Source: Bacteroidales bacterium | Lineage (GTDB): Bacteria > Bacteroidota > Bacteroidia > Bacteroidales > UBA3824 | DNA: 64,000 nt | Reading direction: 5' to 3' | Assembly (NCBI GenBank): GCA_045597465.1 | Contig: JAZLKG010000086.1 | Span: forward strand, 2,994-66,993 | Part shown: positions 2,485-39,574 of the stretch, in pieces | How positions within the stretch are numbered: position 1 is the stretch's first letter | Layout of the letters: each line of letters starts with the position of its first letter | The notes under the pieces: generated by a model | Told to the model about the DNA's origin: nothing | The model's database searches: none | The model's input: the letters and a program-made list of their open reading frames with translations, nothing else | Program-made: the position numbers and the translations under genes

Positions 2485-4908
2485 TTAGTTCCCCAGAATC
2501 CTGAATTCTACCCTTCTGTTGCGGGCTTTTCCGGCTTCGGTGGCGTTGGTGTCGATGGGCTTGTCGGCGCCGTAGCCTTTGGATATCAGCTGGCTCTCAT
2601 CGCATCCAAGCGATATCAGGAACTCGCGGACCGATTCGGCCCTGCGCTGCGATAGTGTCTTGTTGGCCTCGGCCTGTCCAGAGTTGTCGGTGTGGCCCGA
2701 TATCTCCAGCCTGGCCTCAGGATTGTCGTCGATGAATCTTGCAAGGCGCATCAGCTCTGGCTTGGATTCCTGTTTAAGCTCGTATTTGTTGGTCTCGAAG
2801 AAAATGTTTTCGAGGATTATGGAAACCTTGCCGTCCAGGATGTCGTTTATGGAGTTCATCACGATGTTTCGCTCCAGCCTCATGCCTGTTTTCATGTTCT
2901 CGGTGTTTATGTTTCCTGATACGGGGTAATAGTTGTCGAGCTCCACGTAGTATCCGTAGTTGCGTCCGGCCGGCAGTGTTACGAAGTAGGTTCCGTTGGC
3001 GGGGTTGCACCTGAGGTTTCCGAGGGTTTTGCCGCTCTGGAGGTCTTCCCATTTTATGTTGGCTGCCAGCTGGTTGCCGTTGTTGTCGGTTACTTTTCCG
3101 AAGATGATGCCGATGGCCTCGGGGCGCATTTTTACGGGCAGGTCCACGGTGCAGATGTCCACGTTGCTTGATGTCATCTTGGTGAACATTGCGCTCTTTC
3201 CGTCGGTGGCTATCAGGTAGTTGTAGTCGTCGTGGGCGGTGTTTATCTCCTTGCCCAGGTTTACGGGCTCGCTCCATTCGGTCCAGCTGCTGTCGTTTAG
3301 TCGTGTTGACTTAAAGGCGTCCAGCATTCCTATGCCGTAGTGACCGTCGCTGCTGAAATATAGTGTCTTCATGTCGGAGGCCAGCCACGGGCTGCGCTCG
3401 GTGAAAGGCGTGTTGATGGTGGTGCCTATGTTGATGGGGTCGTTCCAGCTGCCGTCGTCCACGTTTCGGGTGGATACGTAGATGTCGCTGTTGCCGTGAT
3501 AGCTTCCGTGGAAGTATTTCTCATGGGGATGGTAGTTGCCCACGTTGCCGCGGCGGTCAGATATGAAGAAAATGGCGTTGCCGTCTGGCGAGAACGATGC
3601 GTCGCCCTCCCACGAGTTTCCGGTGTTCAGGCCCGGCATCTTCTTCAGCGGAGTCCATCCCGTGCCCTTCCGCTCGGTGAAATAGATGTTGGAATCCTTG
3701 TATATCAGCAGCATGTTGCCGTCGGGCGATACTGCCAGCGGCGCCTCGTTGCCCAGGGCGGTGTTAAACTGGTTGAAACCCTTGGCTTGTTCCCACTTGC
3801 CGCCCACCTTCCGCGATACAAAGATGTCCTCGTTGCCCACGTTGTCGGCGCGGCCGTTGGCGCAGAAATACAGCGTGTTGCCGTCGGGGGTAATCACGGG
3901 CGCGTATTCCATGTGCTCGGTGTTTATGGTTTGGGGCAGGGGAGTGGATTTGTACTTGTCGCCGGGCTCGCGCAGCATTGCGGCGGTTTTCTCAATGTCG
4001 CTGGCGCGGTTTGGGAACTTGGCCTTGTAGCTGGATATCAGCGCGGCGGCCTCGTCATACATGCCCATCTCCAGGTATGGGTACATTATGCGTTTCAGGG
4101 CCTCGTATGCCAGCTGGTTTGGTGCGGCCTTGTCGATGTAGGCCTTGTAGTAGGGCTCGTAGTCGGTGGAGTAGCTCAGGTTCAGCCTCAGCTTGAAACC
4201 CTCCTGCGCCAGCTTGTATTCCTCTTTTTCCTTGTTGGTGTAGTACGGATACTTGGGGTATTGCGCGGCAAAGGCGTCCATGGCCGACAGCTCGCCCTCG
4301 TCGTAGGCGTCGCGGCACATTTTCTGCCATAGTTTTTTGGCTAGGTCTGATGCTTCCTTTTCATGCGGCGTGCCAGGATAGCTGTCGGCAAAATCGCTGT
4401 AGGCCTGCATGGTGTTGGCCTTCTTGGTGTTTTCCCATGCCAGCTCGCCCTTGTTGCAGAGGGCCAGGTGGGTGAGGCTGTCGGCGCCGTCGAAGGTCTC
4501 TATAAACCACTGGTAATACTCGAAGGTGTTTTTTTGGCTTACGTTTGCCCATTCCACACCGGCGGCCTTGTTCATGGCGGCGTAGATGTCGCCCTTGTCG
4601 AATCCGTACACTTTCTTGCACACCTCCTTGGTTTTTGGCGATGTGGCCTGATACCTGTCGTGTGAGTTGCGCAGCATCCGGAATCCCTTGGTGGCGTTGT
4701 AGCCGCTGTAGTCGGGATTGCAGAACAGGCAGCCCATGCCGTAGTTGGCCGCCAGACTCTCTGTGCCCTTGCTGAGCGCCTTGCTGAACACCTTGGCCGC
4801 ATCGTCAAGCCGGTTGTTTCTCAGGTGGTCGAAACCCGATTTCAGCGCCTGTCCGCTGCACTCGCCTATGGCCAGGGCGAAGAGCGCTGCTGTTAGTATT
4901 TTTCTCAT
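2485..4908 (-). CDS. PD40/WD40-like repeat + OmpA C-terminal domain protein (PorE-like)
   Basis: Signal peptide MRKILTAALFALA; PD40 repeats (EYAPVITPDGNTLYF); OmpA motifs GHTDNSG, LSQRRAESV, NRRVEF. Confidence 0.85.
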   Translation of the reverse strand: MRKILTAALFALAIGECSGQALKSGFDHLRNNRLDDAAKVFSKALSKGTESLAANYGMGCLFCNPDYSGYNATKGFRMLRNSHDRYQATSPKTKEVCKKVYGFDKGDIYAAMNKAAGVEWANVSQKNTFEYYQWFIETFDGADSLTHLALCNKGELAWENTKKANTMQAYSDFADSYPGTPHEKEASDLAKKLWQKMCRDAYDEGELSAMDAFAAQYPKYPYYTNKEKEEYKLAQEGFKLRLNLSYSTDYEPYYKAYIDKAAPNQLAYEALKRIMYPYLEMGMYDEAAALISSYKAKFPNRASDIEKTAAMLREPGDKYKSTPLPQTINTEHMEYAPVITPDGNTLYFCANGRADNVGNEDIFVSRKVGGKWEQAKGFNQFNTALGNEAPLAVSPDGNMLLIYKDSNIYFTERKGTGWTPLKKMPGLNTGNSWEGDASFSPDGNAIFFISDRRGNVGNYHPHEKYFHGSYHGNSDIYVSTRNVDDGSWNDPINIGTTINTPFTERSPWLASDMKTLYFSSDGHYGIGMLDAFKSTRLNDSSWTEWSEPVNLGKEINTAHDDYNYLIATDGKSAMFTKMTSSNVDICTVDLPVKMRPEAIGIIFGKVTDNNGNQLAANIKWEDLQSGKTLGNLRCNPANGTYFVTLPAGRNYGYYVELDNYYPVSGNINTENMKTGMRLERNIVMNSINDILDGKVSIILENIFFETNKYELKQESKPELMRLARFIDDNPEARLEISGHTDNSGQAEANKTLSQRRAESVREFLISLGCDESQLISKGYGADKPIDTNATEAGKARNRRVEFRILGN

Positions 4909-22722: not shown

Positions 22723-23286
22723 TTATTTTCTTTCCTTTTCGGCGGCTGATACCTGCTCATTTAGGTATTCGGCCGCGGGTATGTGGCTGTGGCGGAATCT
22801 GTCGGCCACGCTTTTTATTATGGCGTAGTCGTTTTGGATGTCCATCATCCCGGCCACGAAGATGTTTCCCACGCGCTCGGGATTTTTCCTCATCATCTTG
22901 CGGCAGCTTTGTGCTCCGCCGTCCTTGTATTGCAGGAGCAGCCTCAGGAAATATTCTGTCTCGGGGCTTCCTGATACTTCCGATTCTAGGATGTTGTAGC
23001 CGTGGAGCGTAACAGCCACATTCTCACCTTTTTGCAGTATCATCGGCAGTTTCTGCTGTCCAAGTATCAGGCGGAAAAACTGATATTCCTCATCACATTC
23101 CACATCTATCGTGGCGGTTCCCATGCCATCCAGCGCCACCGAATCCACAAAGCTGTATTTGTCGAGCCTCTGATATACCACGTGTCCGCTGCTGTTGCCA
23201 GGCACGTGGATGCTGATATGTGCGTTTTGCGATGAGGCTGATACTGCCGATATCAGCAATGCTATTATAATAAGGTGTATTCTCAT
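22723..23286 (-). CDS. Secreted protein, DUF4369-like
   Basis: Signal peptide; VDSVALDG, VSGSPET pattern. Confidence 0.5.
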   Translation of the reverse strand: MRIHLIIIALLISAVSASSQNAHISIHVPGNSSGHVVYQRLDKYSFVDSVALDGMGTATIDVECDEEYQFFRLILGQQKLPMILQKGENVAVTLHGYNILESEVSGSPETEYFLRLLLQYKDGGAQSCRKMMRKNPERVGNIFVAGMMDIQNDYAIIKSVADRFRHSHIPAAEYLNEQVSAAEKERK

Positions 23287-23375
23287 GATTTTTTTGGCTT
23301 TCTTGTTTTCCGCAAATTTCTAAATTTTTGTCCGATAATCATATTTTTTTGTGGTGATTTTTTTTATGGGAGGGC

Positions 23376-23450
23376 GATAGTAGAGCCAAAAGTGGTAATT
23401 TTTGTATAGATTTGGCTCTGGTATCGGGTGATAGTAGAGCCAAAAGTGGT
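23376..23450. repeat. Direct-inverted-direct repeat triad
   Basis: gatagtagagccaaaagtggt at 23376 and 23430; inverted tttggctctggtatc at 23411. Confidence 0.8.
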
Positions 23451-23483
23451 TCAGAATGTGGTTACGATGGAGGATTTATTTTC

Positions 23484-24395
23484 CTAAATATTATTGATTT
23501 CGTCTATTGACAAACCAGTAACAGCGGAAATCTGTTCGTATGTCATTGTTCCGAGAGATTTCAGATTTTTGGCGATATTAATTTGGGTTTGCTCGATGCC
23601 TTCGGCTATTCCCTTCTCGATGCCTTCGGCCATTCCTTTGCGAAAGCCCTTATATATTCCAGTCTCTATCTCGCTCTGACGGATGCGTTTAAGATCCTGG
23701 TCCATTAGATATTGCTTCTTTTCTCTCGGCGAGAGTTTCTCGAACAAAAGAGCTTCTCTTGCTTCCTGAAGACCGGGCGCCTTGGCTGTAGATGGTATGC
23801 AATCTGTTTTCAGAAAACTGATCCATTCCTCCAGGGGAGTTTTTGCGTATTGGTTGAATTGTTTTACCTTCAAGATGAAATACTCTGGCATAATGTCTCC
23901 CGGAGTCTCGCAACTATACAATTCCTTCTGCTCTTCCGAAAGTTCCAGTTTGTTTTTTGAGTTTGATAGACTCACGAACTCTGTTTTGCCGTGATACGCA
24001 TAGTCGTCACCCTTGCCGAGGTCGAAGTAAACAATGTTTATTGAATATATTTTTCGCACCTTGCTGAAAACGTCGCCCTTTTGAATATATTCGGTCAATG
24101 ACTTGGATGTACCGTATGTCATGCGATGGAAATAGTCGTTCTGGTCGTCGTACTGGATTTCGAGGATGAGCAATTCTCCCTCCTCGGTCTCGCAAAATAC
24201 GTCAACACGGTTGTATTTATCATCGAAAGTCTCCTTGTTGGCCTCGCTCTCGTTCAAGTGGGAAAGTTTGATTTTCTTCCCTAAAAGCGAAGTCAGAAAA
24301 CCTTCCACGATAACGTGGTCAGCCTTGTTTCTGAGCAGTTTCTTTATCGCCCAGTCAAAACTTACTAATGGTCTGTCGTAATTTGCAGTAGTCAT
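23484..24395 (-). CDS. Rpn family recombination-promoting nuclease / PD-(D/E)XK transposase-like
   Basis: FDWAIKKLLRNK, NRVD, ILEIQ, GIEKG repeats, C-terminal IAKNLK...TGLS. Confidence 0.88.
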   Translation of the reverse strand: MTTANYDRPLVSFDWAIKKLLRNKADHVIVEGFLTSLLGKKIKLSHLNESEANKETFDDKYNRVDVFCETEEGELLILEIQYDDQNDYFHRMTYGTSKSLTEYIQKGDVFSKVRKIYSINIVYFDLGKGDDYAYHGKTEFVSLSNSKNKLELSEEQKELYSCETPGDIMPEYFILKVKQFNQYAKTPLEEWISFLKTDCIPSTAKAPGLQEAREALLFEKLSPREKKQYLMDQDLKRIRQSEIETGIYKGFRKGMAEGIEKGIAEGIEQTQINIAKNLKSLGTMTYEQISAVTGLSIDEINNI

Positions 24396-24565
24396 ATCCA
24401 GGATTTCTTGATTTGGCGCAAATATAATAAAAATCCCGCTAATTTCATTTTTCCTATGCGATTTTTTTTGATTTTTCGGGGATTGGAATTGTGGAGAAAT
24501 GACGACAACAACGAAAAACAATAAAAAAAATATCAGCAAAATCTTTGTCAGTAATTCTTATTTTA

Positions 24566-24573
24566 TATCTTTG
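24566..24573 (+). promoter_or_regulatory. Bacteroidetes -7 promoter element
   Basis: TATCTTTG matches TAnnTTTG, with upstream TTTG at 24544. Confidence 0.6.
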
Positions 24574-24576
24574 CAA

Positions 24577-25009
24577 TGTCTTTCGGCCCAGCCGAAGACA
24601 ATTATACATAAAGCGTCATTAATGCTTTGTTCTCGTTGTTACGAAATTACCACTTTCAATATCAGGCAGAACGAATCAAAGATGGCGTTTACGGGTATGT
24701 TTATTCATCATCCGGAAAGTGTGCAGAGGACTTCGTGTCCTCTTGCATGCTTTTATGGTGACTCATCATATTGCGTAGGCGTCTGTTGTTCGTTTCCTGA
24801 TAGGGCTGTGGTAGGCCTCGATATAGAACGAACACAAAAACAGATACCTGCGCTTCTTTTGTATATATACTATTAGAAAACAATATCGAATTTTGGCTTT
24901 TTATCCCTTCTTGAAATCTGGACAATTTTAATTAACGGGGAGATAAGCAACTGAAATTCTACACATTATAAAAAACTATAAGGTGTTGATTGGATGCTTA
25001 TTGCCCGTA
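24577..25009 (+). ncRNA. Putative structured leader/regulatory RNA upstream of the dnd locus
   Basis: Five hairpins found by eye; loops TTACCAC and TGTGGTA are complementary; follows a promoter motif. Confidence 0.5.
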
Positions 25010-25076
25010 AGGTTACCAGAACCACAAGAACATTAAGTTCTCCTCTCCGCGCCGTTTTTTTGGTAGAAAAGGAAAA

Positions 25077-25245
25077 ATGAAGGTTGATTTTATTCAGGAT
25101 ACCATTGATGAGATCATAGACCAATATATGTTTGCTGACGATTCGCTCCGCCCTTGGATAATTGGATTCAGTGGAGGAAAAGACTCAACAGTAATGCTTG
25201 AATTGGTTTGGCTCGCAATAAAACAAATCAAGGAACACCACGGTC
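25077..25245 (+). pseudogene. dndC: DndC N-terminal fragment (~56 codons)
   Basis: DQY...RPWIIGFSGGKDST PP-loop; similarity stops after KEHHG and the ORF reads out of frame into dndD. Confidence 0.8.
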
Positions 25246-27223
25246 TGCAAGTGTTTGGTGTTTGTATGGAAAACAAATGCAAGATGTTGACGAATTATAC
25301 AAAAAAGAAATTACCGAACAAGGCGGTTATACAAAGTATATTGCAAAATCTTTGAACAACTCTGCAATGGCTGAGGGTGAGACTGATTTTGCTGTCCGCG
25401 TTGTGTTTGTGGATGTCAATATTCCTGAAATCCAATGCAAGGAAATCCAGATTACAAGAACTTACTCAACGGTTTCCAATAATGACCGTTTGGAGATTCT
25501 TATTGACGGATACAAAAACGAGTTGATTCAAGAACTCACAACAGAAGGCAAGAAAGATGCCGAGGAAATTTTCATCAGGGAGTTTTTGTTGCCCATCGAA
25601 ATCGCCAAATTCTTTTTCTTCGACGCAGAGAAAATTGTTTCAATAGGCGATATCAGTTCGTCTGAACAGCGTCAGAAGTTGAGCAGGGCTTATACAGAAG
25701 TACTTGGTATCAAGAAATACGAAGATTTGAAGGGCCAAATTGAGGTCTTGCAGGACGATTATCGTAGAAATTCGGCAAAGCCTGAAGAGTTGCGTAAATT
25801 CAATTCTATAAAAACTGAGATTGAAAATAAGAAATTGGAAATCGATGAGTATAATGATAGAATTGAAACGTTAGAAGAAGAAAAGGAAGATAAAAGGTCC
25901 GCTTCCAATAATCTTCAAATGAAGTTGATTAAGGAAGGTAACCAAATGTCACTTGAACAGATAGGCCATTACAAGGATCAAGAGACAAAACTTGATAAAA
26001 CACTAAAGGATATCCAAGAAAACCTTAGAGACTTATACGATTTAGTTCCTTTTGGTTTATCCGGTGGTTTACTTATGGATATTGCTGAGCAGTTGAAAAA
26101 GGAAACAAATATAAAAAGAAACCAATATAGACAGGAAGATGTTTCTTCAAAAACTAGTAATATCATCAATGATATAGAAGAGGCAAGACAACAATCTGGA
26201 CAGACTATCAGATACGAAATCAGCAGTTTCTATATTGAACAAATCAAGAAACTTGTGAAGAAGTATTTCTATAGTGATGTTCCTGAGGTTGACCCCAATG
26301 AGGTTACTCTTCATGATTTTACTGACGAACAAACAAACACTTTCAATGACTTGATAAAGAATTTGAAGCAGTCGTTTAAGTCAGAATTCACTAAGTTGTC
26401 AAATGAGTATCAGATTAAGAAAAACGAGTATGATCAGGTTCATCGTTTGATTCTTAATGCTGAGAAAAATGCAGAGGATGAACATATTGCTGCTTTGAGG
26501 AAAGAAAAGGAAGAACTTGATGCTAACATAAACGCCATAGAATCAGAAATCAAAGATCTATATGGGAAAGTAATCGTTGCTCGCAATGATTTGAAATCGT
26601 TGAAGCAAAGACAGGAGGAACTCAGAAAGAAAATTGATGAGTCAAGCAAATATACTGACAAAGAGCGTAAGACTAAACAGATAATAGATCAGTTGAAATC
26701 GTTTATTGTCTCGTTTAAACAAGAAAAGAAACGTAAACTTGAGGCAAATATTTTGGAAGAGCTGTCTCTCTTAATGCACAAAAAGAATTTTGTAAAAAGA
26801 GTGGAAGTCGACATTAATTCCAATAATGATGATGTCGATATCAGTTTGTACAGGGACAATAATGTAAAATTGGGTAAAACCTCACTCTCAATGGGTGAGC
26901 GTCAGTTGTTCTCGTCTGCATTGCTGAAATCTCTCATTGACGAGTCGGATATCGAATTTCCTGTCTTCATTGATAGCCCTATGCAGAAGTTCGATGGTCA
27001 GCATGCGAAAAGCGTTATTACTGAATACTATCCAAATGTATCAAAGCAAGTTATTCTATTCCCATTGCTGTTGAAAGAATTGACGGCGGAAGAGTACGAA
27101 CTTTTGAAACCTAAGGTTTGCAAGGCTTATTTGATACAGAACGAAACCAACGAGGCGTCTCATTTTACCGATGTGGCTCCCGATGAATTAATTAATAAAT
27201 ACAAGAATCTATATGCAAATTAA
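25246..27223 (+). pseudogene. dndD: DndD (SMC-like ATPase) lacking its N-terminal Walker A
   Basis: Begins at VWCLYGKQM; FFFFDAEKI, coiled coil, LSMGERQ signature and VFIDSP Walker B are present, but no GxxGxGKT. Confidence 0.8.
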
Positions 27224-28796
27224 CATACGTACTTCGGAGGCAAATTTGGAAGTAGTAAGGACTCTTACAAAGAAATTGCCGACAGGATCAAAGGAGAATG
27301 TAATTGCTAGAATTGCATTAGGGTTTTCTTTGCAGAAAGGTGTAAAATTCTCCGAGTCAGAATTCAATAAATATGATTCAAAAGGCAAGGAATACAAAGA
27401 GCATATATTGTTTGATCAGAATAAGGATTACTATATAGCCCTTATTTGTCAGCATTATGGAATATACAAAACCGATGAAAATATTCCAAAGTATATGAAA
27501 CTCCATATTGATGACGGATTGGAGAGAATGAATAAGATTTTCTCCAACAGCAATAACTATACTTTTATGGATTTCCTTATGGATAATCTTGAAAATGGTA
27601 TTAAAATGCTGGACGATTCCAATTCGGAGTATTCTTTCGCCAAGAATTATAACCTTGGTATAGAAAAGAATTTCTATCAGGATGCTATTAATATCGCGAT
27701 CGGAAAAACTCTTCAGGGAGAAAATATCAATTTCAGTTTCAATAAATCAGACCTTTACAGCAACAATCATATAGCAGTAGCGGGTAATTCAGGAACGGGA
27801 AAAACTCAGTTTGCATTATCATTGTTGCAACAAATTTCTCAAAACTCAAACCACAAGGTCAATTTTATCTATCTTGACTTCAAGGGATTGAAAGGTGATG
27901 ACGCAGAGAAATTGAAACCATTTTTTGATTCTACACATACTGAATTAATTGATGTTCCAAACAAACCATTCCCTGTAAATCCACTTTCGTTTATTGATGG
28001 AATCAACGAACAGAACAAGAAGATGGGAATTGACAAGTTTGTTGATATTATTACCAAATATCAAAGTCTTGGTATTAAACAACAGGGAAAATTGCGTGAA
28101 GCAATTAAAGAGTGTTTCAAAGATCAAAAACCGAAGGAATACCCTTCATTGCAAGAAATCAACGAAAAGTTGATAGAGATTGTAGGTGAAGACAAAAAGG
28201 ATTCGCTTACTCAAATTATTGAAGATTTGAGCCGTTACACTATTTTTAGCAACGGGAAAACTCTTGACACAAATTTCCTTGAAAGAAATCTGTACTTGTC
28301 GCTTTCAGGAGACTTAGCGCCACAAATCAGATTCACTTCGTTGTTCCTTATCATAAACTATATTTACAATATGTTTATGAATATGGAGAACACACCTGTT
28401 TCTGATGAAGGATATAGGGCAATGAGATACGTAATTCTTATTGATGAGGCTCATGTAATCTTTAAGGAGAAAAAATATCACGATATCTTAGAAAAAATAC
28501 TCAGAGAGATTCGTTCAAAAGGCGTTTCGGTAATCCTTTTGTCGCAAGGAATCGAAGAATACATTACGTCTTCCTTTGACTTTTCAAGTATGTGTCAAAT
28601 TGCATTCCTGTTGCCGATTAAGGATTTGACAAACAATAAGATTATCAATAAGTTTATGGGATTCTCAGACAAAGATTCATTAAAAGCAAGCAAGAGTCTT
28701 GAGCGTATTTCAAATGGACAGGCTATCACAAACATTGCAGAATATACTAAAGGCGAATTGTTTGATGTATCTCAATATTGGAAAATGAATCAATAA
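27213..28796 (+). CDS. dndE: DndE domain fused to a HerA/DndH-like P-loop ATPase
   Basis: N-terminal IRTS...ENVIARIALGFSL...HIDDGLE; AGNSGTGKT, ILIDEAH, EIRSKGVSVILLSQ. Confidence 0.75.
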   Translation: MQINIRTSEANLEVVRTLTKKLPTGSKENVIARIALGFSLQKGVKFSESEFNKYDSKGKEYKEHILFDQNKDYYIALICQHYGIYKTDENIPKYMKLHIDDGLERMNKIFSNSNNYTFMDFLMDNLENGIKMLDDSNSEYSFAKNYNLGIEKNFYQDAINIAIGKTLQGENINFSFNKSDLYSNNHIAVAGNSGTGKTQFALSLLQQISQNSNHKVNFIYLDFKGLKGDDAEKLKPFFDSTHTELIDVPNKPFPVNPLSFIDGINEQNKKMGIDKFVDIITKYQSLGIKQQGKLREAIKECFKDQKPKEYPSLQEINEKLIEIVGEDKKDSLTQIIEDLSRYTIFSNGKTLDTNFLERNLYLSLSGDLAPQIRFTSLFLIINYIYNMFMNMENTPVSDEGYRAMRYVILIDEAHVIFKEKKYHDILEKILREIRSKGVSVILLSQGIEEYITSSFDFSSMCQIAFLLPIKDLTNNKIINKFMGFSDKDSLKASKSLERISNGQAITNIAEYTKGELFDVSQYWKMNQ

Positions 28797-29314: not shown

Positions 29315-29362
29315 TTAAAAAATTTATTATATTTGTGGCGTGAAACTAAATTTAGAATCGCT

Positions 29363-30784
29363 ATGGGCATTATTGTAGGACGCGAGAAGGAGCGAGAGAT
29401 TCTTGACAGATATTACAATTCCGGCAAGGCAGAGTTTGTGGCGGTGTATGGACGTCGCCGTGTGGGAAAGACGTATCTCATCAAACAGCATTTCGCCAAG
29501 CAGATCAGTTTTTATGCAACTGGAATCTTCGAGGGTTCCAAGGATGAACTTTTATCGCATTTCAACAAGCAACTCAACCTGTATTCGGGAGGAAGTTATC
29601 CGCTGGTTGACAACTGGTTCGATGCGTTTGACCAACTTAAAAACCTCATAATCAACTGCCACAAAAAGCGTGTTCTTGTATTCATCGACGAGTTGCCGTG
29701 GTTCGATTCCCATAAATCACGTTTCGTGAAAGCCCTCGAATTGTTTTGGAACAGCTGGGGAGCCGATCAGGAAAATCTGATGCTCGTGGTCTGCGGATCG
29801 GCTACCACGTGGATGACCAACAAGATAATCGGCGACAAGGGCGGACTCCACAACCGAATCACCAAGCAGATATATCTTGCGCCGTTCACTATTGCCGAGG
29901 CTGCGAAATTCCTTAGGACCAAGAAGATAGAGTTTACGGCCAAACAACTTGCCGAATATTATATGATAATGGGAGGTGTGCCGTTTTATCTGGACCAGAT
30001 AGCCAAGGGAAAGAGTCCCGAACAGAATATCAACGAGATTTTCTTTGACAGGAATTCCGACCTCAGCAAGGAATATGGCAGGCTCTACAAATCGCTTTTC
30101 GGCGAGGCGCCCACGTATCAGAAGGTGGTGGAATTGCTGGCCACAAACAGCAGCGGATACACTCAGAAAGAGATTGCACAGAAACTGAAAATCACAAATG
30201 GCGGAAACCTCAGCATTGTGCTCCAGAATCTCTGTGACTGCGATTTCGTGACAAGATATTACGCCTTCGACAAGCAGAAGCGCGACGTCTTATACAAGTT
30301 AATCGACTTCTACACACTGTTTTACCTGCATTTCATCCACGGCCAAATGCGGAATTTGGGCAGTTGGAGCAATTCGCAGGATTCGCCCGAAAAACGCACC
30401 TGGTATGGCTATGCGTTCGAGTTGCTGTGTTTCTGCCACATAGATTTCATAAAAAGCGCACTCGGAATCTCGGGCACGGTCACCAATGTAAGTTCCTGGC
30501 GTTACGATGGCGAATATGGAAAGGCTCAGATAGATTTGGTAATCGACCGCCGCGACGATACGATAAACCTCTGCGAGATAAAATTCTCCAAGAATCAGTA
30601 TATCATCACAGGCGACTACGAGGAAAAACTTGAAGAGCGGAAGGAACTTTTCAGGCTTGCGACAGGCACTCACAAGGCGCTCTATAATACATTAATCACC
30701 ATCAACGGTCTTAAGCCCGGAATTCACAACGACTGCATACAGAATCATATTGACTTATCTCTGTATATCAATGGCTTAGTATAA
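29363..30784 (+). CDS. ATPase_2-type AAA ATPase with wHTH and C-terminal PD-(D/E)XK-like domain
   Basis: IVGRE, YGRRRVGKT, FIDELPW, GGVPFYL, QIDLVIDR...CEIK. Confidence 0.88.
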   Translation: MGIIVGREKEREILDRYYNSGKAEFVAVYGRRRVGKTYLIKQHFAKQISFYATGIFEGSKDELLSHFNKQLNLYSGGSYPLVDNWFDAFDQLKNLIINCHKKRVLVFIDELPWFDSHKSRFVKALELFWNSWGADQENLMLVVCGSATTWMTNKIIGDKGGLHNRITKQIYLAPFTIAEAAKFLRTKKIEFTAKQLAEYYMIMGGVPFYLDQIAKGKSPEQNINEIFFDRNSDLSKEYGRLYKSLFGEAPTYQKVVELLATNSSGYTQKEIAQKLKITNGGNLSIVLQNLCDCDFVTRYYAFDKQKRDVLYKLIDFYTLFYLHFIHGQMRNLGSWSNSQDSPEKRTWYGYAFELLCFCHIDFIKSALGISGTVTNVSSWRYDGEYGKAQIDLVIDRRDDTINLCEIKFSKNQYIITGDYEEKLEERKELFRLATGTHKALYNTLITINGLKPGIHNDCIQNHIDLSLYINGLV

Positions 30785-30886: not shown

Positions 30887-32200
30887 TCACATATCCTCCA
30901 TTGACAATCCTCTTACCTCGAATTTGTATTTGCCGAATTCTGCCTTGGGGAGTTTTTCTATCTTTGAGCGCAGGTCACCGAGGCTGATTTTCTTGGGGTT
31001 GCGCTTAATTTCGGATATAAGGCCAGTGTGGTCCATCTCGTTGATGGCCACCATATCAATCTCGTTCTCGTTTTTGCGGTCCCACCAGTTGCCTATTGCT
31101 GTGTATTGGCCCGTCTCCATATACATTGCCTGAAAATACTGCTCTAATGTGATTCCGCTGAAAAGCTCATAGTTTTTCTCGATGTTTTGACGCAGAAGAG
31201 CCGTCTGCTGACGCTCTATCAGCGATTGATATGGACAGATAAACCGGAACCAGAAGCGCAGGAATGGATCTGATATGGCGTATGAGGTAGTCTTGCTGTT
31301 GGTATGGCTCAGGATTGGTTTCTTCCTTGTCACCATATAGAAGTTCTTCTCCATATTCATCAAATACACGCCCATGTCTTTCTGCATTACGCTGTCTATC
31401 TCGGTACGGCGTGTCATGCCTTGTGCTATCAGCTGAAGGATGGAGAAATACGTTGCGCTGTCGTCGCTAAACTCCTGATTCATTATGTCGCGTCCCTCGG
31501 TAAGGAAATACGAGTCGGGACGGCATACGTAGTCAAGCATTCTTTTCTTGCTGGTGCATTTGGCATCCATCAACAGTTCCACATATTTGGCCACACCACC
31601 CGTTATCATATAGAGGCAAAGCAAGTCCTCGTTCGCGTAATCGGGATTGTGGTCTTTAAGAATCTCCTTCAGAACCTCTATCGAAAAAGGCAGAAGCGTG
31701 AATTTTGAAGTTGGGCGTCCATAGAGAGGCTCGCCCTTCTCCTCGAAAATTCGTTTCATCAACGACTGTATGCTTCCTGATACTATGAGGTTTATGTGGG
31801 ATTCCCTGTGATAGCGGTCCCATATATCCTGAATCTCGCTGAAGATTGCCGGATTTATTTTATAAAGAGTCTGAAACTCGTCGAATACTATTGTGAAATG
31901 CCTCTTCTGCGATTCCCGCATTACAATCTCGAACAATTCCCCGAATTTTGTAATGTATCCATAAATGCTGATACCTAATTGCTCCGAGATTATTGACTGA
32001 AATTTTCTGCAAAGCAGCGACTCGCTGTCCTTGCTCACAAACAGGTATGCGTATTCAGAGTTGCTGAGCGCATGGGTGAGCAACGATGTTTTTCCAACAC
32101 GTCGGCGTCCCATCAATACTGTGAATGTGGCGGATGTCTGTGCCTGCAACTCATTTTGTTTCAGTATATTTATCTCATTTTCGCGGTCGTAGAATCTCAT
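30887..32200 (-). CDS. ATPase_2 + DUF234-like nuclease-domain protein
   Basis: FYDRE, GRRRVGKT, FDEFQ, DPFLRFWFRF, GNWWD...EIDMV...EIK. Confidence 0.88.
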   Translation of the reverse strand: MRFYDRENEINILKQNELQAQTSATFTVLMGRRRVGKTSLLTHALSNSEYAYLFVSKDSESLLCRKFQSIISEQLGISIYGYITKFGELFEIVMRESQKRHFTIVFDEFQTLYKINPAIFSEIQDIWDRYHRESHINLIVSGSIQSLMKRIFEEKGEPLYGRPTSKFTLLPFSIEVLKEILKDHNPDYANEDLLCLYMITGGVAKYVELLMDAKCTSKKRMLDYVCRPDSYFLTEGRDIMNQEFSDDSATYFSILQLIAQGMTRRTEIDSVMQKDMGVYLMNMEKNFYMVTRKKPILSHTNSKTTSYAISDPFLRFWFRFICPYQSLIERQQTALLRQNIEKNYELFSGITLEQYFQAMYMETGQYTAIGNWWDRKNENEIDMVAINEMDHTGLISEIKRNPKKISLGDLRSKIEKLPKAEFGKYKFEVRGLSMEDM

Positions 32201-38328: not shown

Positions 38329-38402
38329 GGCGGGATAGCTCAGCTGGTTAGAGCGCATGATTCATAATCATGAGGTCCCCAGTTCAATCCTGGGTCCCGC
38401 TA
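38329..38402 (+). tRNA. tRNA-Met(CAT), probably elongator
   Basis: GGCGGGA/TCCCGCT acceptor stem, anticodon arm CATGA-TTCATAA-TCATG, T-loop GTTCAATC. Confidence 0.93.
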
Positions 38403-39500: not shown

Positions 39501-39574
39501 CGGGGTGTAGCGCAGTTGGCTAGCGTACTTGCATGGGGTGCAAGTGGTCATGAGTTCGAGTCTCATCACTCCGA
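39501..39574 (+). tRNA. tRNA-Pro(GGG)
   Basis: CGGGGTG/CACTCCG acceptor stem, anticodon arm CTTGC-ATGGGGT-GCAAG, T-loop GTTCGAGT. Confidence 0.93.

Follow-up and report, generated by a model that had tools for sequence, protein, structure and literature searches.

The window analyzed here, a 64,000-nt stretch of DNA from a Bacteroidales bacterium (contig JAZLKG010000086.1), contains a structured leader RNA of 285 bases that is real and uncatalogued. The leader occupies positions 24577-24860 of the + strand and is composed of a 5' hairpin, a hairpin A, a central domain, and a hairpin B followed by a U-run. The upper halves of A and B carry three pairs of complementary boxes (a0:b0, a1:b1, and a2:b2), which differ between copies of the leader and match within each copy. 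It is probable, with moderate confidence, that the RNA is a cis-acting leader in which strand exchange between A and B competes with the formation of a terminator and would control read-through into the cargo genes downstream.

The element, about 285 nt long, folds on the + strand with a minimum free energy (MFE) of -105.1 kcal/mol, as compared to a mean of -68.9 kcal/mol for shuffled sequences (z -7.51, with 0 of 200 shuffles as stable). The fold of the - strand over the same positions is weaker (-82.9 kcal/mol, z -4.39), and the pairing of A with B is already visible in the centroid fold of the + strand. The promoter motif that had been noted upstream of the hairpins in the original prediction is present. 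It is a Bacteroidetes-type -7 box, TATCTTTG (TAnnTTTG), invariant in close paralogues and located at 24566-24573 (+), one base to the left of the position that had been implied. A TTTG sequence 18 nt upstream of this box (24544-24547, +) is a possible -33 element, according to the -33/-7 organization that we take to be that of Bacteroidetes promoters. From this arrangement, transcription would start near 24578-24580.

All the hairpins listed in the original prediction are found at the places given, with boundaries at about 24611-24690 for hairpin A and 24715-24753 for the central hairpin upon refolding. The RNA begins with P1, a 5' terminal hairpin of the MFE fold (24577-24600, +) that has counterparts of variable sequence in the other copies. 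It is followed by hairpin A (+), the lower stem of which is formed by 24611-24632 pairing with 24675-24690, and the upper half of which holds boxes a0, a1, and a2. The central domain (24691-24772, +) consists of the C2 hairpin, flanked by segments C1 and C3. C2 displays near-invariant strands of the GUGUGC/GCACAC type, 97-99% paired in the alignment described below. Hairpin B (24773-24853, +), holding boxes b2, b1, and b0 in its upper half, is the stem of an intrinsic-terminator-like element, with the U-run TTCTTTT (24854-24860, +) as the predicted end of the RNA. An open reading frame (ORF) that overlaps the RNA (24499-24876) has no Pfam match. A type III toxin-antitoxin RNA (toxI-like) was considered and rejected: no tandem direct repeats occur within 24400-25100, where the architecture is one of hairpins.

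The boxes lie on the + strand and are defined by sequence and duplex folding. Box a1 is loop A itself (UUACCAC, 24647-24653), and it forms six Watson-Crick pairs and one G.U pair with b1, the loop of hairpin B (GUGGUAG, 24808-24814). Box a2 (UAUCAGG) and the adjoining GAACGA (24660-24674) pair with b2 (24790-24802), the stretch UAUCAGG..AACGAA (24660-24675) being complementary to UUCGUU.CCUGAUA (24789-24802). Both of these complementarities, the latter as the basis of a mutually exclusive A:B fold, had been pointed out beforehand, and both covary across the 58 aligned homologues. The third pair, between a0 (24633-24644) and b0 (24818-24831), emerged from duplex folding and had been missed. Reaching beyond the loops, the complementarity takes in three boxes and extends over the entire upper halves of A and B. 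It amounts to an interrupted duplex of about 40 nt there, and the RNA could form a rod of about 130 bp.

Homologues of the leader are numerous. BLAST searches with a 311-nt query returned two further full-length copies in the same genome (G000), with 67-69% identity, and copies in two of 24 genomes of the same genus. With an nhmmer profile, the search of G000 yielded 11 full-length copies and two fragments, three of the copies being located on a single contig (C35), about 10 kb apart. Two other places in this genome (C35:108524-108626 and C28:14361-14468) show matches of 14-17 nt to the A and B boxes, about 100 nt apart, and may represent additional, strongly diverged leader copies that escaped nhmmer. 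A 21-nt pattern taken from the conserved 5' strand of hairpin A, scanned against one genome per species, identified 67 loci. Most of these (62/67) come, judging by record titles, from Bacteroidales of the rumen or gut such as Prevotellaceae, Paludibacteraceae, Sodaliphilus, and Alloprevotella, and from other members of the order; the remaining five, from four Chloroflexota/Anaerolineae and one cyanobacterium, match the pattern alone and were discarded as chance hits. Of the 62 Bacteroidales loci, five are repeats of loci from genomes G002 or G006, and one yields an extracted stretch identical to that of another; there are also six incomplete copies and a copy (L016) in which a different sequence has taken the place of the B half. 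The working set therefore comprises 57 full-length copies, 49 from the pattern scan and eight from G000, G002, and G006, and the MAFFT alignment comprises 58 sequences. At the family level, a single Prevotella-type query matches, at E<=1e-6, 40 genomes out of 301 sampled in the family that includes Xylanibacter ruminicola D31d, two candidates per genome being scored. In an even sample of the order, with at most four genomes per family, four of 401 genomes match.

The suggestion of an uncatalogued Bacteroidales RNA motif is borne out. At the gathering score, Rfam 15 finds nothing in the window except two tRNA genes located elsewhere (38329-38402 and 39501-39574). It finds nothing at E<=1 over positions 23000-26500, only noise of 12-16 bits at E<=10 over 24540-24900, and nothing on the RNA at eight other representative loci. 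In the searched full-text literature, the coverage of which lies outside subscription journals and supplements, no such leader is described; the same applies to the passages retrieved from a 2026 genome-language-model preprint and from a 2020 preprint on structured RNAs of microbiomes. At locus L020, a long hairpin of about 200 nt (2854-3052) located upstream of the leader gives weak matches to plant microRNA precursors, at 44 bits for a gathering score of 230, and is probably just a long inverted repeat.

The alignment of 58 sequences makes it possible to compare three structure models. RNAalifold and a scan of all column pairs single out a1:b1 and a0:b0 as the top two helices by far, the latter joining the 5' side of the upper stem of A to the 3' side of that of B; a2:b2 is the third long-range pair. 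The loop-loop contact at the heart of the original prediction is therefore among the top covarying helices of a family of homologues. A model with separate hairpins is 87.9% paired, with a covariation score of 0.268 (shuffled 0.199, best slid 0.107) and 160 double-change cells vs. 50 in shuffled alignments. A model with one long rod is 85.3% paired and reaches 0.358 (shuffled 0.194, best slid 0.127), with 426 vs. 143 double-change cells. The pseudoknotted model, in which the lower stems of A and B are kept and the three inter-hairpin helices are added, is 87.8% paired and scores 0.384 (shuffled 0.204, best slid 0.136), with 477 vs. 150 double-change cells; none of 500 shuffles reaches this score, in a control that is inflated by the relatedness of the sequences. 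Furthermore, the paired percentages are underestimated in the variable parts because the alignment is not structure-aware.

Helix by helix, changes on both sides are observed in 8/8 (a0:b0), 3/4, 3/4, and 7/7 (a2:b2) pairs of the inter-hairpin helices. The lower stem of hairpin A is 88-89% paired, with many G.U/A-U exchanges, and the base stem of hairpin B shows compensatory changes in seven of 11 pairs. The alternative pairing of the A 3' strand with the B 5' strand (A3':B5') is 83-84% paired, with eight of 18 pairs compensatory; the rod, however, also puts a helix beside the U-run. The apical stem of B forms in all 57 sequences of the working set, in the variants GGCU/GGCC, GCCC/GGGC, and GGUC/GACC, while that of A forms in 36 of the 57, in many variants and with double-sided changes in four of six pairs. 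These apical stems are real, and the picture of two hairpins displaying complementary loops therefore holds for at least one stage of folding.

The boxes are specific to their own leader. Duplexes between the upper halves of A and B have a mean energy of -34.0 kcal/mol for cognate and -17.2 kcal/mol for non-cognate combinations of the 58 sequences. The cognate B is the best or tied-best partner among 58 for 45 of the 58 A hairpins and ranks in the top four for 56, the clear outlier being L016, the copy with the replaced B half. Taken box by box, over 44 distinct box combinations, the cognate and non-cognate energies (in kcal/mol) are -12.2 and -5.1 for a1:b1, -10.1 and -3.8 for a0:b0, and -8.5 and -2.7 for a2:b2. 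The cross-box controls a2:a0 (-4.2 and -3.8), b2:b0 (-3.3 and -3.5), and a1:b0 (-2.6 and -2.5) are nearly level, and three further such controls show no cognate advantage. Within G000, the cognate partner is the best for 11 of 11 copies, some of which have one or two boxes in common, none all three. Loci L015 and L020 possess identical 5' hairpins and flanks and completely different a1 and a2 boxes; box sets therefore move or diversify as modules. No cognate advantage is found when A, B, and the central domain are matched to their own 5' untranslated region (UTR) and start, the cognate combination being the best in 0, 2, and 0 of 39 cases, respectively.

In 54 of the 57 full-length copies, a TAnnTTTG box precedes the conserved motif at a fixed distance of not more than 130 nt, and a run of at least four T ends the RNA in 54 of 57 as well. 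Between the U-run and the first ORF, such a box is present at only one of 52 loci, so that the cargo genes are promoterless at the level of this motif. The distance from the U-run to the start of the first ORF is 43-133 nt at 40 of the 52 loci and either 3 nt or 204-539 nt at the other 12; in the window, it is 216 nt. Lacking a promoter of its own, the cargo operon would be expressed only by read-through. The attenuator-type layout that had been proposed stands as regards the promoter-proximal leader, the intrinsic-terminator-like hairpin, and the promoterless genes. Its dedication to dnd or defense genes does not stand, 25 of 64 loci having other cargo (see below).

The leader is also a border. 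Pairwise homology seldom reaches to the left of the promoter, with 10 of 970 pairs extending beyond -120. Among the 951 pairs for which there is a first ORF, 149 have homology that stops 10-20 nt short of the start codon, and these make up the most populated narrow class. The sister genome G002 provides the clearest case. Its 91% homology to the window covers 23448-25070, including the upstream PD-(D/E)XK gene and the RNA, breaks off 7 nt short of the ATG, and resumes at 28795. In between, G002 has an unrelated cargo of 10.1 kb (L092 5883-16011) vs. 3.7 kb in the window (25071-28794, +). This swap of cargo between the same flanks identifies the leader as the left edge of a swappable cassette. 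The post-terminator 5' UTR (24861-25070, +) belongs to the conserved leader module, with the same 91% homology to G002 and no TAnnTTTG box. In copies of the window type (the window itself, L002, and L003), this UTR is 120-216 nt long and contains conserved blocks, e.g., around GGGGAGATAAGCAACTGAAATTC, which may constitute a second element.

In the favored reading, the leader RNA would be made from its own Bacteroidetes promoter and would end at the intrinsic-terminator-like hairpin B. Hairpin A and the conserved central domain would fold first. Upon emergence of the B 5' strand, b2 would pair with the exposed a2, which would act as a toehold; the 3' strand of A would then swap its partner, from the A 5' strand to the B 5' strand, and a1:b1 and a0:b0 would lock the complex. 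This exchange would compete with the closure of the terminator stem and would thereby set or regulate read-through into the cargo, and a factor stabilizing hairpin A or binding the central domain would shift the balance. The scheme presumes that the RNA is transcribed and terminated, that the effect has this direction, and that a signal exists.

Stepwise folds of the 57 members follow a comparable course. With hairpin A complete, the A5':A3' pairing amounts to 19.6 bp per sequence, in addition to the apical stem. When the central domain is added, C2 and a C1:C3 pairing appear and hairpin A is retained. Addition of b2 replaces A5':A3' (18.7 bp per sequence) by A3':B5' (16.5 bp) together with a2:b2, and the freed A 5' strand folds back on itself as a small hairpin (6.8 bp). 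Once b0 has been added, the folds contain each of the three box helices. The full-length folds are mixed, with 12.6 bp per sequence for A3':B5', 6.0 for B5':B3', 5.9 for A5':B3', and 5.4 for A5':A3'. As models, the stepwise folds fit a toehold-and-strand-exchange switch in which A and the B 3' strand would compete for the 5' strand of the terminator.

Several points weigh against this strand-exchange leader. The stepwise folds are nested MFE folds, ignoring kinetics and pseudoknots. In the rod state, the B 3' strand can pair with the A 5' strand right up to the U-run; both states might therefore terminate, and the A:B pairing might be mere architecture. In the conserved lower strands, covariation cannot separate intra-hairpin from inter-hairpin partners, and the A 5' strand is fixed by the search pattern itself. 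A simple terminator scan of the window did not call hairpin B, its stem and loop exceeding the limits of that scan. A search for sequencing runs that contain the region gave no RNA run, only two contig runs of unknown kind with a low share. Finally, no conserved gene for a protein partner is found upstream of the copies, the neighbors being unrelated housekeeping, defense, or other multicopy genes.

The same rod is at the center of a different explanation, in which A:B, C1:C3, and C2 build a single long imperfect hairpin with paired 5' and 3' ends. The main product would then be the terminated 285-nt species, a stand-alone RNA acting in trans, e.g., by binding or sequestering a protein via its conserved central domain, and read-through would be a by-product. 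Such a non-coding RNA is in keeping with the mostly rod-like full-length MFE folds (12.6 bp per sequence for A3':B5' and 5.9 for A5':B3'), with the covariation score of 0.358 of the rod model, and with the presence of at least 11 copies per genome. In addition, both strands of C2 are near-invariant although they are base-paired, which suggests sequence-specific recognition. It is nevertheless unlikely. Every copy stands in a fixed orientation directly upstream of a cargo operon that is promoterless at the motif level, and the conserved module extends to 7-20 nt from the start codon. A genome search for trans targets gave only chance-level 13-14-mers and paralogues, and the apical stem of A, unpaired in the rod, covaries.

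A role in RNA processing or stability is less probable still. The long imperfect A:B duplex would be the substrate of a double-strand-specific RNase, or else a structure protecting the 5' end and thereby determining the half-life of the mRNA for the cargo. Complementarity would be all that is required of the boxes, and they are constrained for pairing and not for sequence. The interrupted duplex of about 40 nt in the upper halves, the possible rod of about 130 bp, and the P1 hairpin at the predicted 5' end would also suit such a module, which however leaves unexplained the conserved GC stem and U-run right after the duplex, as well as the covarying apical hairpins.

At the DNA level, the arms of A and B could be an inverted-repeat site for recombination or inversion, or the left boundary of a cassette hotspot, with their complementarity maintained by gene conversion. 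The exact exchange of cargo between the 3' end of the leader and the conserved right flank in G000 and G002, the wholesale box differences between leaders with identical flanks (L015 and L020), and the mostly Watson-Crick nature of the boxes (1047 of 1316 cells, with a weak G.U excess of 67 vs. 40 A.C) are compatible with this view. A purely DNA-level element is very improbable, however, since in the local stems G.U pairs outnumber A.C 535 to 44, which indicates selection on the + strand RNA and for which the boxes show only the weak excess just mentioned, since all 58 aligned copies show the central segment in one and the same orientation, and since no recombinase or other gene is conserved nearby, none of the nearest upstream ORFs of 55 of 58 listed loci together with L002 and L003 (L061 left out) being a recombinase; moreover, the fold of the + strand is more stable than that of the - strand by 22 kcal/mol, the internal loops between boxes remain asymmetric, and the promoter is outside the repeat.

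The strand-exchange leader may be extended, in a speculative and rather doubtful form, to a new class of riboregulators. The central domain would sense a common cellular or infection factor, and the box pairs would be an orthogonal strand-exchange actuator, allowing at least 11 paralogous switches to operate without cross-talk. Restriction-modification, Pbe/Dnd, GTPase, and unnamed cassettes of Bacteroidales defense islands would be placed under shared control, and selection would keep the boxes diverse, either to avoid cross-pairing or to prevent invaders from mimicking them.

In the window, the leader had been placed upstream of the dnd genes, which is correct in a loose sense: its cargo (25071-28794, +) is a Pbe/Dnd-type module, without intact dndC. 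The first ORF (25077-25355, +) encodes 92 amino acids that match only the N-terminal part of DndC (NCBIfam) and overlaps, in another frame, a PbeC/DndD-like gene (25208-27223, +; PADLOC PbeC, E 4e-218). Domain searches show that the last gene (27213-28796, +) encodes a DndE domain fused to a HerA/DndH-like ATPase. By its gene content, the window may hold the restriction side of a Pbe module without intact modification genes. The 10.1-kb cargo of G002 opens with a PAPS-reductase (DndC-like) gene.

Downstream genes were tabulated for 64 full-length loci, i.e., 56 of the 57 working-set copies (L061 left out) and eight further G000 copies. At 39 of them, the first cargo gene is for a DNA methyltransferase or has another role in DNA modification or restriction. 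These include D12, N6_N4, C5, Eco57I, HsdM, and Type ISP methyltransferases, a PADLOC MTase_II in L041, L063, and L065, the DndC-like PAPS reductase of L009, and the TdeIII endonuclease that opens the C6 operon. They are commonly followed by ResIII or PLD helicases (PbeA-like) and by DpnII, CfrBI, LlaJI, and McrBC-like genes. Within G000, six of 11 copies head modification or restriction cargo, and one more heads two LeoA/LeoBC-like GTPases. At the remaining 25 loci, the cargo comprises GT2 glycosyltransferases, an acyltransferase, a sulfatase, a GH2-like protein, Sel1/TPR and MBG-domain proteins, and unknowns. Among the unknowns, a conserved trio of about 429, 154, and 467 amino acids recurs at four loci in four genomes (L040 36-3208, L046 42-3210, L053 3812-6983, and L081 3813-6987); it has no Pfam match, its L040 copy has no PADLOC match, and it is a candidate unnamed system. 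A retron msr-msd RNA was also rejected as a candidate, no reverse-transcriptase domain being found in any scanned cargo ORF.

Some cargo arrangements are recurrent. In L020, L026, L027, L029, L039, L052, L056, and L074, the gene for a D12 (Dam-class) methyltransferase precedes that for a PLD-ResIII helicase, the helicase of L020 matching PADLOC PbeA with E 5e-172. A D12 methyltransferase with DUF7226 and a DndB/DpdB-like protein is found in L015, L021, L032, and L055. The copies of contig C35 (L087 1602-1819, L087 11486-11746, and L088 2004-2279) have the same orientation and a different cargo each: unknowns with an Arf-like GTPase and PIN_3; two LeoA/LeoBC-like GTPases; and a C5 methyltransferase with PDC-M26A and DUF2357/PDDEXK_7. 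The leuS and prs genes are located between these leader copies. In the window, the flanks of the cassette are multicopy Bacteroidales genes, namely a PD-(D/E)XK_2 (Rpn-like) gene (23484-24539, -) on the left and two ATPase_2/DUF234 genes (29333-30784, + and 30887-32200, -), the latter of which is absent from the G002 locus. The segment 23372-23450 is single-copy in the window, with no call by Tandem Repeats Finder, and in the G002 locus (L092 2575-2767) it has overlapping offset matches, as if tandemly repeated.

The control of restriction-modification and defense operons is poorly known in Bacteroidales, and a shared, portable promoter-leader-terminator module preceding most of them would offer a general handle on their expression. 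Since it marks the left edge of swappable cargo, the leader can be used to find new defense candidates, such as the 429/154/467-amino-acid trio. The three matched boxes would provide natural address codes for RNA-RNA pairing that are orthogonal to each other, and catalogues would gain, with this family, a large and widespread RNA class.

Among known systems, the antisense immunity RNAs C4 of phages P1 and P7 and CI of phage P4 carry a regulator and its complementary target boxes on one transcript. They use several short boxes and not one long duplex, and compensating changes in boxes and targets provide specificity between relatives. The outcome is premature termination in the case of P4 CI, while the target of the P1 type overlaps a translation start. 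The leader resembles them by its short boxes matching downstream boxes on the same transcript and by their covarying specificity. The original prediction had drawn this parallel. In contrast to the P1 type, no complementarity to the translation start of the cargo is found, and the target boxes lie inside the leader's own terminator hairpin. Unlike these phage RNAs, moreover, the leader has no blastn match in phage or plasmid collections, and a single pattern match in viral contigs.

In the kissing pairs CopA/CopT and RNA I/RNA II of plasmids, the two partners come from the same DNA segment, each transcribed from a different strand. As in CopA/CopT, the leader has two stem-loops with complementary loops and upper stems, and its best model resembles the four-way CopA-CopT complex. 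In contrast, its partners are on one strand, about 150 nt apart, and their pairing is intramolecular. The complementarity must therefore be selected, whereas opposite-strand pairs obtain it free. By analogy, P1 C4/P4 CI and CopA/CopT appear closest to the leader in working principle. Membership in either group is not claimed, given the lack of a phage or plasmid context and of start-codon pairing and the location of both partners on one strand.

With attenuators and riboswitch platforms, the leader shares a promoter, a structured leader, a GC stem with a U-run, genes without their own promoter, and alternative pairings predicted for the 5' strand of the terminator. It differs by the absence of an Rfam match, a much larger size (285 nt), hypervariable switching strands, at least 11 paralogues per genome, and diverse cargo. 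JUMPStart/ops-RfaH and UpxY-dependent leaders contain short sequence elements read by NusG paralogues. They similarly place a conserved element just upstream of many accessory or horizontally acquired operons, whereas the element studied here is a large RNA that folds and includes a terminator. Bacteroidales invertons are invertible promoters with inverted repeats upstream of restriction-modification, surface, and glycosylation genes. The inverted repeats of the leader precede the same kinds of genes, but its promoter is outside the repeat, its orientation is the same in 58 of 58 copies, and no recombinase is conserved nearby.

Finally, FopS and GibS are described, in the passages retrieved from one article, as multicopy paralogous small RNAs of Bacteroides with canonical Bacteroides promoters, the FopS RNAs being about 65-70 nt long and acting in trans on susC translation starts (PMC11697453). 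As far as those passages go, the leader is likewise a multicopy paralogous Bacteroidales RNA family with a canonical promoter, and it differs from FopS by its length of about 285 nt, its fixed position upstream of cargo, and its unrelated sequence. The present family is distinguished by the combination, on a terminator-bearing leader, of three hypervariable, self-matched box pairs, a high copy number, and a fixed place at the left border of exchangeable defense and accessory cassettes in Bacteroidales.

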